The position numbers and the translations under genes were made by a program. From a virus (lineage: Duplodnaviria > Heunggongvirae > Uroviricota > Caudoviricetes), in the IMG/VR virus record IMGVR_UViG_2740892117_000010, positions 1 to 21,412 of that record: a stretch of 21,412 nt of DNA; one strand, 5' to 3'. Under the pieces are notes generated by a model. That model was not told where the DNA came from. It ran no database searches and saw only the letters and a program-made list of their open reading frames with translations. Positions 601 through 2,542 of the stretch are shown here, one piece after another (positions within the stretch are counted from its first letter, which is position 1; each line of letters starts with the position of its first letter).

Positions 601-771
601 TAATGATTGTCAAATACGTTTATCACACTGATATTCAGAATCACTACTGAAAGACTCCCTTTGTGGTGCGCGAGGGATGCGCATAAAAAAACCACCAGCA
701 AATGCCAGTGGCTAGAGATATTCATTGCGAATAACCATCACAAAACAACTTAACTCGTGAGGGTAGAAATT

Positions 772-1176
772 TTACTCGAGGCCAAGTTTCTTCTTTAAAT
801 AGGCCTTCGTTAACTCCAGCCCAACATCTTTGATTGTACTCAAAGGGGCATCGCTCATTGACTTTAATTTCTCAAAAACCGTAGGTTCATTTAATGCCTG
901 GGCGAATTCTTGTCCCTGCGCAGATAGTCGCACGTCGGTACCCATATCTAGCATATGGCCACAATGGCGCATGTAGCCCAGTTTAGTTATGTCATCCGTT
1001 ATTAGATCTTTATTACTGATATAACCTTGCTCAATAAGAAGTAGATAATGAAACATCCCTTCATTCGAGCAGATATCGTACCCCGCATTAGCTAAGTCTT
1101 TTGTAGATATAAAGGGAGTTTTCGCTTTCAAAAATACCTCAAGCATCCCCTTCATGTATTCTAAATTTTTAACCAC
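772..1176 (-). CDS. Hypothetical moron protein (134 aa), no family recognised
   Basis: ORF with GTG start at 1176 preceded by AAGGAGG 5 nt upstream; AT-rich relative to neighbours; lies between lysis cassette and cos. Confidence 0.6.
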   Translation of the reverse strand: MVKNLEYMKGMLEVFLKAKTPFISTKDLANAGYDICSNEGMFHYLLLIEQGYISNKDLITDDITKLGYMRHCGHMLDMGTDVRLSAQGQEFAQALNEPTVFEKLKSMSDAPLSTIKDVGLELTKAYLKKKLGLE

Positions 1177-1311
1177 AAAAACCTCCTTAGGATAATTGGA
1201 GGTCTAGAATACCGTTTGCAAGCACGTTGATAAATCATTATCACAGGCACTCAATGAATGCCTGCTGTAATTGCGTACGGTAATGAACGTAAAAAACCGC
1301 CCGAGGTATAT

Positions 1312-1671
1312 TTAGACATTAGATGGCGCTTTGTCAGTATAGACCCGGTACGCCCTGACAAACATCCCGTTACATTCAGAGTCCGCCTTGATATACGCCA
1401 ATTCGTAACCCCGATGCTTTAGCTCTTCACGAGCTCTTTTCTCTTCCTTAGCCATGAAGTTAAGATCTTTAATTTCTGAGTAGGTATATGTTCCCACTAT
1501 AAAATCTCTGCCTGGCCGTCCATTTATCAGTTCCATGTGTCCTCCCAAAAAGTTGGTAGTCAGAACATACCATGCTAAGCGAGGTGAAAGCACCTTTATC
1601 AAGCCCCCCGCAGATAGACTTTGTAATGGAGAGTCATTGAGTAGTTCTCGTAATTCTTTGATTTTCCGCAC
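1312..1671 (-). CDS. Hypothetical moron protein (119 aa from GTG at 1671; alternative 74-aa product from ATG at 1536)
   Basis: ORF downstream of the lysis-operon terminators; internal ATG at 1536 has a strong GGGAGGA Shine-Dalgarno, the GTG at 1671 has none, so the start is uncertain. Confidence 0.5.
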   Translation of the reverse strand: MRKIKELRELLNDSPLQSLSAGGLIKVLSPRLAWYVLTTNFLGGHMELINGRPGRDFIVGTYTYSEIKDLNFMAKEEKRAREELKHRGYELAYIKADSECNGMFVRAYRVYTDKAPSNV

Positions 1672-1824
1672 ACTCGTGCAGAAGGTGTTCCCCGTCGGGC
1701 TACGGTCATGGTTAATGCGGGAATACAGCGACGATACAGCGCATGATGTGTCAGGCTTGAATACCTTTATCCGTTAAAAGGGATATCAGTTAAGTTATCC
1801 CGTGTAGGGTATAAGCCATTATCA

Positions 1825-1887
1825 AAGCCACTCTGTAGGGAGTGGCTTTTGTAATGGCAATAAAAAAGCCCCGCGAATGCGAGGCTA
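1825..1887 (-). terminator. Tandem intrinsic terminator hairpins ending the lysis operon
   Basis: Minus strand reads GCCTCGCATTCGCGGGGC then TTTTTTATT (1856-1887), and a second hairpin AAAGCCACTC...GAGTGGCTTT (1825-1850). Confidence 0.6.
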
Positions 1888-2059
1888 AATCCAGGTATTT
1901 TTAATGACTGGCTCTTATCTCAACGCAGCCCCTTACCGCGCGCCAGATGCTCAATATCAAGCATCAGCAATGAGATGTTTAACCATGATTCACTCCAGAA
2001 GTGAGCACCACCCTGTCTACAGAGCCAGATGTGAAGGATGATGAGTAAAATTATCGCTA

Positions 2060-2542
2060 TCATCGAAGGCATTGCGTCCTGATGTATTCCTGAAGCGTTC
2101 TCAGTGCTGTTTGGTCGCGGATAATTCCGTCCCGGATACCGAGAACGTTTCGTCCAGCAACTGGAGAGAGTTCGACGGTGGCATCATTGCCCATGCCGGA
2201 GGCGCTGGAGGTTTCGGCTGAGGATGGCACAGGGCATTTTCCTTTGACGAACACCCGACCACCATTATCAAGCTTGCGCCGAAGAGCATCATTTTTAGCT
2301 TTCGCATCAGCTAACTCCTTCGTGTATTTAGCATCGAGTGCATCAGCAGCACGCTGGCGCTGCTGCATGTCAGTAATGGTGGCGGTCGCCTGCTTCAGCT
2401 CACTGACTTTTTTATCACGCTGTTCTTTGTAGGCGATGGCGTTATCACGGTAATGATTGACCGCCCACGACAGGCAGACGATGATGCAGATAACCAGAGC
2501 ATAAATAATCGCGGCGACTCTGCTCACTGATCTATCCCCCAA
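2060..2542 (-). CDS. Rz: Rz i-spanin (inner-membrane spanin subunit)
   Basis: Translation [39 protein letters not shown]...[15 protein letters not shown] closely matches lambda Rz from memory; overlaps the endolysin 3' end as in lambda. Confidence 0.92.
2101..2307 (-). CDS. Rz1: Rz1 o-spanin lipoprotein, embedded in the +1 frame of Rz
   Basis: Translation [21 protein letters not shown]...PPAPPAW has a lipobox (VVGC) and proline-rich core like lambda Rz1; entirely inside Rz. Confidence 0.85.

Follow-up and report, generated by a model that had tools for sequence, protein, structure and literature searches.

The window studied here is a stretch of 21,412 nucleotides, positions 1 to 21,412 of the IMG/VR virus record IMGVR_UViG_2740892117_000010 (Caudoviricetes), and it covers the late part of a lambdoid prophage of E. 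coli, with all features downstream of Q on the minus strand. Between the lysis genes and cos lie two small open reading frames (ORFs), ORF1 (1312..1536, minus strand, 74 aa) and ORF2 (772..1176, minus strand, 134 aa). On balance, the segment 683-1630 that carries them is probably made up of two independent single-gene morons, stacked head-to-tail in the lysis-cos/terminase slot, in which ORF2 would be a winged helix-turn-helix (wHTH) regulator and the cassettes would have some low-level transcription of their own. A moron is by definition independently expressed cargo in a phage operon (PMC2629481). In each cassette a two-tier hairpin comes first as the 'head'; it is followed by a leader of some 50 nt that includes a weak promoter-like -10, by a Shine-Dalgarno (SD) sequence, one small gene and an intrinsic terminator. 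An earlier reading made from the letters of the window alone (the sequence-only reading) had placed both minus-strand ORFs between the lysis genes and cos, in the slot between Rz and cos where bor is found in lambda, and this placement was right, as Rz/Rz1, cos and a Nu1-like gene could be located around them. It had also called the region AT-rich, which it is to a moderate degree, with 41.7% GC in the cassette region vs 50.3% in the lysis genes. Its view of the two ORFs as one two-gene cassette did not hold.

As judged by sequence comparison, ORF1 and ORF2 do not make up a single unit of two genes. They stand beside each other in a single lineage with at least 99% identity, to which 35 of 5,426 E. 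coli genomes and 14 IMG/VR contigs belong, and have different partners elsewhere. In other lineages ORF1 is followed by a 65-aa ORF and DUF6694, or by an opposite-strand DUF6953/DUF2158 pair, and the ORF2 lineages at 96, 87, 82-88, 66 and 48-55% identity all lack ORF1. The homology block of ORF1 reaches from about 1630 to the T-run after the stop codon (alignment A5, three ORF1 lineages); that of ORF2 starts near 1275 and extends to the T-run of the 713-683 terminator (alignment A6; loci L016 and L018). Both blocks have sharp edges. Homology with L016, L018, L046 and L047 stops right after this last T-run, and past the terminator the contexts (E. coli, Klebsiella and Hendrixvirinae-type) show no relation to each other. 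The intergenic gap of 135 nt includes the ORF2 cassette's own head. The mosaic junctions at 1857, 1629 and about 1275 fall at the 5' edges of hairpins, and another junction is found at 1657. Since they are not co-inherited, ORF1 and ORF2 do not form a two-component system.

Exchange of single cassettes could be seen in an O104:H4 prophage (L002:3930-4235), which keeps the ORF1 and ORF2 cassettes and has the segment 1629-1857, from the first hairpin position to the second, replaced by a 95-aa gene. The replacement gene, WP_000343118.1, has no Pfam match, and its junctions at the hairpin 5' edges make it a clean cassette swap. Other arrangements were observed in or near the same region. On the opposite strand, locus L028 has the DUF6953/DUF2158 pair (L028:5312-5736), and L006 has a gene for a HicB-like antitoxin together with a small partner gene (L006:1245-2188). 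Both pairs are possible toxin-antitoxin morons.

The cassettes are accessory. Phages mEp460 and Ayreon have 1657-2600 in common with the window at 96.5% identity and yet lack the cassettes, the match of the flank extending down to 1657 only, so close phages differ at this position in whether the cassettes are present or absent. The slot between Rz and cos is a general cargo hotspot that holds many unrelated small genes. Another mark of a moron, a terminator of its own, is also found: that of ORF2 travels with the gene, and that of ORF1 is still complete in L028, whereas the window has a decayed form. Both genes are cargo of the ordinary phage kind, with proteins that are already in RefSeq as hypothetical, where the annotation pipeline PGAP annotates ORF2 and not ORF1. 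They may be of benefit to the phage or its host. If the moron reading is true it adds two more cargo genes to a well-known lambdoid accessory slot, which is of limited general interest.

Both ORFs are real genes. The sequence-only reading had left the start of ORF1 ambiguous between a 119-aa and a 74-aa form, and it is the shorter form that stands, with its ATG at 1536 behind the SD sequence GGGAGG (1546-1541). All database homologs, and the family phrog_6100 to which ORF1 belongs, are 74 aa long, and the 45 codons upstream contain several in-frame stops in relatives, which rules out the 119-aa form. The longer reading frame also spans the mosaic junction at 1657. ORF2 starts with GTG at 1176, and its near-perfect SD sequence AAGGAGG (1188-1182), which had been pointed out earlier, ends 5 nt ahead of this codon; homologs begin at the same codon with either ATG or GTG. 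The ratio of nonsynonymous to synonymous substitution (dN/dS) is 0.11-0.19 for ORF1 and 0.07-0.14 for ORF2 (0.07-0.19 for both together), in comparisons where the synonymous divergence is saturated, and means that both genes are under purifying selection.

The AlphaFold2 model of ORF1 (predicted local distance difference test, pLDDT, 78) is a beta-beta-alpha-beta-beta sandwich of beta-hairpin, helix and beta-hairpin, and structural comparison of this model gave no significant fold match. Searches for ORF1 gave no Pfam, NCBIfam or PADLOC match, and tblastn found none among 50,697 deposited phage records. ORF1 is thus a small protein, beta-beta-alpha-beta-beta in the model, for which no relative of known function could be recognised. 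PGAP does not annotate the gene in RefSeq genomes with an identical copy of it, despite the purifying selection and the phrog_6100 family. As a by-product of the analysis, this is a 74-aa gene under purifying selection that is systematically missed by RefSeq annotation.

ORF2 is annotated by PGAP as the hypothetical protein WP_000240372.1 and belongs to phrog_585. Its AlphaFold2 model is confident (pLDDT 91.3): a bundle of three helices carries a beta-wing, and further helices form the C-terminal part. No Pfam, NCBIfam or PADLOC match was found for ORF2. Among the Pfam results for the locus, weak matches to Glyco_hydro_59_C, DUF3882 and Flu_PB2, far below threshold, were discarded. The profile of its close family (alignment A3) retrieves 229 clusters at 50% identity, all single-domain proteins of about 135 aa, and 42 of 58 sampled members of this retrieved family match PF10711, the Pfam model of DUF2513. 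A comparison of A3 with 21 PF10711 proteins in hhalign gave 99.6% (E=2e-24) over residues 1-131 of 134. Because this profile-profile match is full-length and 42 of the 58 members match PF10711, ORF2 is by sequence comparison a divergent DUF2513 member, within a divergent enterobacterial prophage subfamily. ORF2 and its approximately 12 closest clusters score below the Pfam threshold for DUF2513, which separates them from bona fide members, but the length is the same, the conserved His, Arg-Leu and Gly positions are the same, and the winged-helix core with its C-terminal helices is common to both. The remote-homology search that the sequence-only reading had proposed has in this way led to a family and a fold for ORF2, and for ORF1 to no significant fold match.

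Four residues are nearly invariant in the ORF2 family: His43 in the predicted recognition helix, and Arg83, Gly88 and Phe91 in the wing and the following helix, with Arg83 on the wing itself. Their placement in the model would fit a conserved nucleic-acid binding, and ORF2 is most likely a small, probably dimeric, sequence-specific DNA-binding regulator. The resemblance to winged-helix proteins of the MarR, PadR, HxlR and TubR type is at the level of the fold only (10-20% identity). Unlike these, ORF2 has differing C-terminal helices and no match at the level of hidden Markov models (best PDB profile E=0.13). The literature on DUF2513 and PF10711 offered nothing functional, and one passing mention in a B. 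anthracis marker study. With DUF2513 placed as a winged-helix family that has a strikingly fixed position in phages, discussed below, the family becomes a candidate well suited to study as a regulator or exclusion factor of prophages.

In all phage contexts examined, the DUF2513-family gene is on the late strand, 3' of the lysis genes and directly before the small terminase gene (terS). The terminases beside it are of at least five kinds, including Nu1/GpA, DUF1441/GpA and HNH+Terminase_4/TerL, and further Hendrixvirinae TerS, Terminase_2 and the P22-like TerS of Klebsiella phage ST846-OXA48phi9.2. The family also occurs outside phages. Its member in Oceanobacter stands alone between dprA and yrdC, among housekeeping genes. 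In Aeromonas piscicola (L021:5126-7456) a canonical DUF2513 gene is flanked by two Mrr_cat nuclease-like genes, one of which matches the PADLOC models PDC-S02, PD-T7-1 and mREase_IV. The same island also holds a Phage_GPA replication gene and a PAAR/Tae4 effector of the type VI secretion system. The arrangement is a hint at a possible regulatory role of some DUF2513 proteins in defence islands. The canonical DUF2513 proteins themselves have no PADLOC match.

Known lambdoid morons, such as lambda bor and the ant moron of P22 with mnt/arc, are likewise dispensable, compositionally distinct and mosaic-edged insertions in the late operon with a terminator of their own. ORF1 and ORF2 are unlike lambda bor, which encodes a lipoprotein on the opposite strand, in that they are co-oriented with the late genes. 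The P22 ant moron encodes small DNA-binding repressors, Mnt and Arc, within the late operon (PMC2629481). Our best guess is that ORF2 may be analogous in kind to these repressors. The two differ from it in that they are of the ribbon-helix-helix type and have known operators, while ORF2 is predicted to be a wHTH protein.

The ORF2 cassette ends in an intrinsic terminator at 683..713 on the minus strand (hairpin 713-690), with a 10-bp stem and T7 (folding free energy, dG, -13.9; z -3.6). After the stop codon of ORF1 there is a remnant at 1291..1306, minus strand, a degraded hairpin with T6 (dG -5.4, z -1.5), which is found in a clean form in L028 (CCGCC-TCCG-GGCGG-T6). Within 150 nt of the stop codon, 15 of 18 ORF2-family lineages have a hairpin with a T-run, and at least eight of these terminator sequences are unrelated to each other. 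The same was found for 38 of 234 (16%) of the other same-strand ORFs in the same loci, a clear difference (p=6e-9) that remains when shared terminators are collapsed (11 of 14 ORF2-family lineages, p=1.5e-6). A gene-linked terminator makes sense mainly if ordinary polymerase also transcribes the gene, and it fits independent transcription.

Promoter-like elements are also present. A candidate extended -10 of ORF1, TGgTATGTT at 1564..1572 (minus strand), lies about 27 nt ahead of the ATG, and its pattern TGnTAnnnT is kept in all four ORF1 lineages with varying flanks. The candidate sigma-70 promoter of ORF2, TTATCA-N16-TATTCT at 1206..1233 (minus strand), is weak, with 8 of 12 consensus matches. 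Both of its hexamers are kept in four ORF2 lineages, and the spacer differs at about half of its positions. A TAnnnT element is found 24-30 nt before the start codon in ORF1, ORF2 and one other cargo family (9 of 10 heads), accompanied in the ORF1 leaders by the TG of an extended -10. CATTACA as a -35 together with GATAAT as a -10 was ruled out, as the spacing is 26-31 nt, and pairing with the SD sequence in the ORF2 leader was dropped, as it is not kept in L016 or L018.

In the lambda paradigm, Q-modified polymerase traverses the late operon to reach the terminase and head genes. During lytic growth both genes would necessarily be transcribed by this Q-antiterminated polymerase. It must cross the region, and for that reason the terminators upstream give ORF1 and ORF2 no insulation from late transcription. 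The sequence-only reading had regarded the cassette as independently transcribed behind tandem terminators (1825-1887). Its argument from upstream terminators fails, and the independent transcription itself fits the ORF2 terminator, the gene-linked terminators of the family and the -10-like motifs. These features suggest a low level of own transcription, for example in the lysogen, and independent low-level transcription of the cassettes is likely but unproven. The terminator of ORF1 has decayed here, and its transcripts therefore probably run on into ORF2.

Some observations speak against the interpretation of the two cassettes as independently transcribed morons with a wHTH regulator. A scan for consensus promoters found none on the minus strand upstream of ORF1 or ORF2, the best candidate having 8 of 12 matches, and the modest surplus of promoter-like matches may reflect the AT-rich intergenic DNA. 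Terminators whose role is not known, and which are without known morons, also occur within lambdoid late operons (PMC8022706). ORF2 has no PF10711 match even at E<=1, and its close relatives have no Pfam domain among the precomputed ones. Its proposed DNA binding would follow from the modelled fold only. The near-invariant position of the ORF2 family before terS could mean a function in the late operon instead of free cargo.

Such a function would make ORF2 an accessory factor of the late operon, expressed from the late transcript only, that for example binds DNA near cos or pac or modulates the expression of late or terminase genes. Small late activators are encoded directly upstream of terS in Gram-positive phages, which gives a positional analogy, and the fixed place after the lysis genes and before the small terminase, across at least five terminase types, fits it, as does the lack of a strong promoter for ORF2. 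We nevertheless consider this unlikely, as ORF2 is rare and dispensable and is absent from phages with the same backbone and the same terminase. In addition, a terminator separates the ORF2-family gene from terS in 15 of the 18 lineages, DUF2513 is found in the non-phage contexts of Oceanobacter and Aeromonas, and the slot holds many unrelated genes. The earlier remark that neither ORF matches a known late-gene product agrees with our results, in which no homology of sequence or fold to virion or packaging proteins was found. It is improbable to a similar degree that ORF2, alone or with ORF1, is an anti-phage, superinfection-exclusion or anti-defence factor of the prophage. The moron architecture with its own terminator and the rare, patchy and horizontally shuffled distribution are what would be expected of such a factor, and in one case a distant DUF2513 gene has an Mrr_cat gene on either side, of which one matches PADLOC models. 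Accessory slots of prophages are known to hold defence genes (PMC8585504). The proposal of a lysogenic-conversion or defence cassette found no confirmation, with no match to PADLOC models, also for the canonical DUF2513 proteins, and none to conversion factors. There is no enzymatic or effector domain, just a 134-aa wHTH protein and a 74-aa protein that are not co-inherited; the Aeromonas association is single and anecdotal, and the Oceanobacter copy is found among housekeeping genes.

That ORF1 and ORF2 form one functional operon, as a toxin-antitoxin or a regulator-effector pair, is very unlikely. They are adjacent and co-oriented, occur together in 14 of 14 near-identical IMG/VR copies, and are likely to be co-transcribed here as a consequence of the decayed ORF1 terminator. 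The comparison of lineages largely refutes this interpretation, since the partner is missing in three further lineages of ORF1 and in at least eight further ones of ORF2, and since the 135-nt gap with the ORF2 head divides two separate, sharp-edged homology blocks. That the two ORFs are without function, as products of chance or as remnants that decay in a spacer of junk DNA, can practically be dismissed. This explanation could draw on the missing PGAP annotation of ORF1, the lack of Pfam and NCBIfam matches and the decay of the ORF1 hairpin and terminator, but it is refuted by the purifying selection, with the dN/dS values given above and a saturated synonymous divergence, and it does not agree with the strong SD sites, the confident AlphaFold2 models and an ORF2 family of 229 clusters at 50% identity.

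The most unusual feature seen at the locus is the hairpin at the junctions of the cassettes. The tandem terminators of the sequence-only reading turned out to be two different things. The first, at 1861..1886 on the minus strand (hairpin 1886-1867), is a canonical intrinsic terminator with an 8-bp GC-rich stem and U6 (dG -14.1, z -3.65). The second, at 1812..1858 on the minus strand, is a two-tier hairpin, here called copy (a), in which the outer stem is GCCATTA/TAATGGC and a 2x2 internal loop leads to an inner stem of 9-10 bp (dG -26.8, z -7.3; 53.5 bits with our covariance model). It is followed by CUUAUA and is not called by the terminator scan; because no U-tract follows on the transcribed strand, it is not a canonical Rho-independent terminator. 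The GenBank record of Ayreon labels this element 'terminator'. Copy (b), at 1589..1630 (minus strand), is the 5' edge of the ORF1 cassette (44.5 bits, z +0.7). It has decayed in the lineage of the window and is intact in L028. At the 5' edge of the ORF2 cassette, copy (c) at 1231..1274 (minus strand; 53.8 bits, dG -17.3, z -3.7) has an intact inner stem, ACAGGCA-N9-TGCCTGT, and a decayed outer stem. The motif has seven matches in the window, to be compared with 0.69 expected by chance, and the three copies described are clustered at the cassettes.

The inner stem differs completely between the copies and yet stays complementary, with double compensatory changes in 6 of 13 pairs, and the outer stem alternates between CCATTA/TAATGG and GCATTA/TAATGC. 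On the opposite strand the element reads as the hairpin followed by TTTTGTAAT. The covariance model finds copies outside of the set from which it was built. They are in phages of E. coli, Klebsiella, Yersinia and Pectobacterium, and all of them precede small cargo ORFs of the same slot and are on the late strand; no copy was found in the non-phage DUF2513 loci. Other copies are at L028:4906-4948, L019:4913-4956, L003:4467-4514 and L012:2658-2700. An exact-pattern scan of IMG/VR gave at least 119 contigs with the two-tier hairpin, of which 80 loci were used for the analysis of context. Among these, 20 of 22 distinct inner sequences adopt the same fold. A same-strand lysis gene is found upstream in 63 loci and elsewhere in 2, and of the 48 loci that reach far enough downstream, 42 have the large terminase gene (TerL) there on the same strand and none has it in another arrangement. 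None of the 80 loci carries ORF1 or ORF2.

Hairpin types and ORF families are shuffled. L013 has an ORF2 homolog with an ORF1-type hairpin, and L019 has a 31%-identical DUF2513 protein with an ORF2-type hairpin. The ORF2-type inverted repeat was for this reason set aside as an ORF2-specific operator. Four tandem hairpin copies within about 800 nt, delimiting very short cassettes upstream of ORF1 and ORF2, were observed in L033:1076-1895 and L045:1576-2395, which suggests repeated unequal exchange at the hairpins. The Rfam scan gave sub-threshold matches only, and the match to STnc560 (22.7 bits, gathering threshold 55) was dismissed, as this is a chromosomal small RNA at ydeI/ydeE in Salmonella.

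It is conceivable that the two-tier hairpin is a weak or bidirectional terminator, a site of RNA processing or stability, or a short, conserved 'linker' for cargo swaps by homologous recombination. Terminators, possibly bidirectional, and intercistronic hairpins of the RNase III type are also stable GC-rich hairpins between genes, and in its long interrupted stem the element is similar to the RNase III processing sites of phages. In contrast to these, the two-tier element has no U-tract on the late strand, its outer stem is conserved while the inner one varies and covaries, and it is placed at the 5' edges of cargo cassettes, confined to the junction between lysis and terminase genes. A conserved junction hairpin may explain the shuffling of cargo or the processing of cassette mRNA. 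A more far-reaching explanation is that it is a cassette-boundary signal, for recombination and/or RNA processing, that organises an integron-like array of promoter-bearing cargo in the same orientation, located where the lysis genes meet the terminase genes in enterobacterial lambdoid phages, and that DUF2513 proteins are widespread DNA-binding regulators, expressed from prophages and delivered in this way. We regard this as rather doubtful.

The gene order from Q is a Q-type antiterminator, a DNA methyltransferase, a holin, DUF1327/YdfR, lysozyme, Rz/Rz1, a 50-aa ORF, ORF1, ORF2, cos and the Nu1-like gene, as obtained from the ORFs of the window, Pfam, direct reading and RefSeq, which annotates a locus of 99.96% identity in E. 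coli CCUG 73778. All of the following are on the minus strand. Lysozyme is at 3057-2524 and the Rz/Rz1 lysis genes (Pfam Phage_lysis) at 2542-2060. The 50-aa ORF after Rz (1920..2072) is the RefSeq hypothetical protein WP_001139679.1 and, by sequence comparison, belongs to the widely conserved backbone outside of the cargo; the block 1657-1900 and beyond is common to mEp460, Ayreon and 3,881 of the 5,426 E. coli genomes. On the other side of the cassettes, the cohesive end GGGCGGCGACCT was read directly at 561-550 and is that of lambda cos. The gene for the lambda Nu1-like small terminase at 372-1, also read directly, is called 'DNA-packaging protein' in RefSeq.

Further upstream, the DNA methyltransferase (4811-3759) has 350 aa and is of the N6/N4 type. 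It lies between the Q region and the holin within the late transcription unit, and the same layout was seen in mEp460, Ayreon and L005. The motif CATTACACAGCACCCGCATCTGCGAGGTGGGGTTATG at 3724-3687 (minus strand) is directly upstream of, and overlaps, the annotated start of the holin gene (essD), and it has CATTACA and the loop motif CATCTGCG in common with the ORF1-type hairpin. It may be a hairpin that controls translation of the holin, or it may be related to the junction element.

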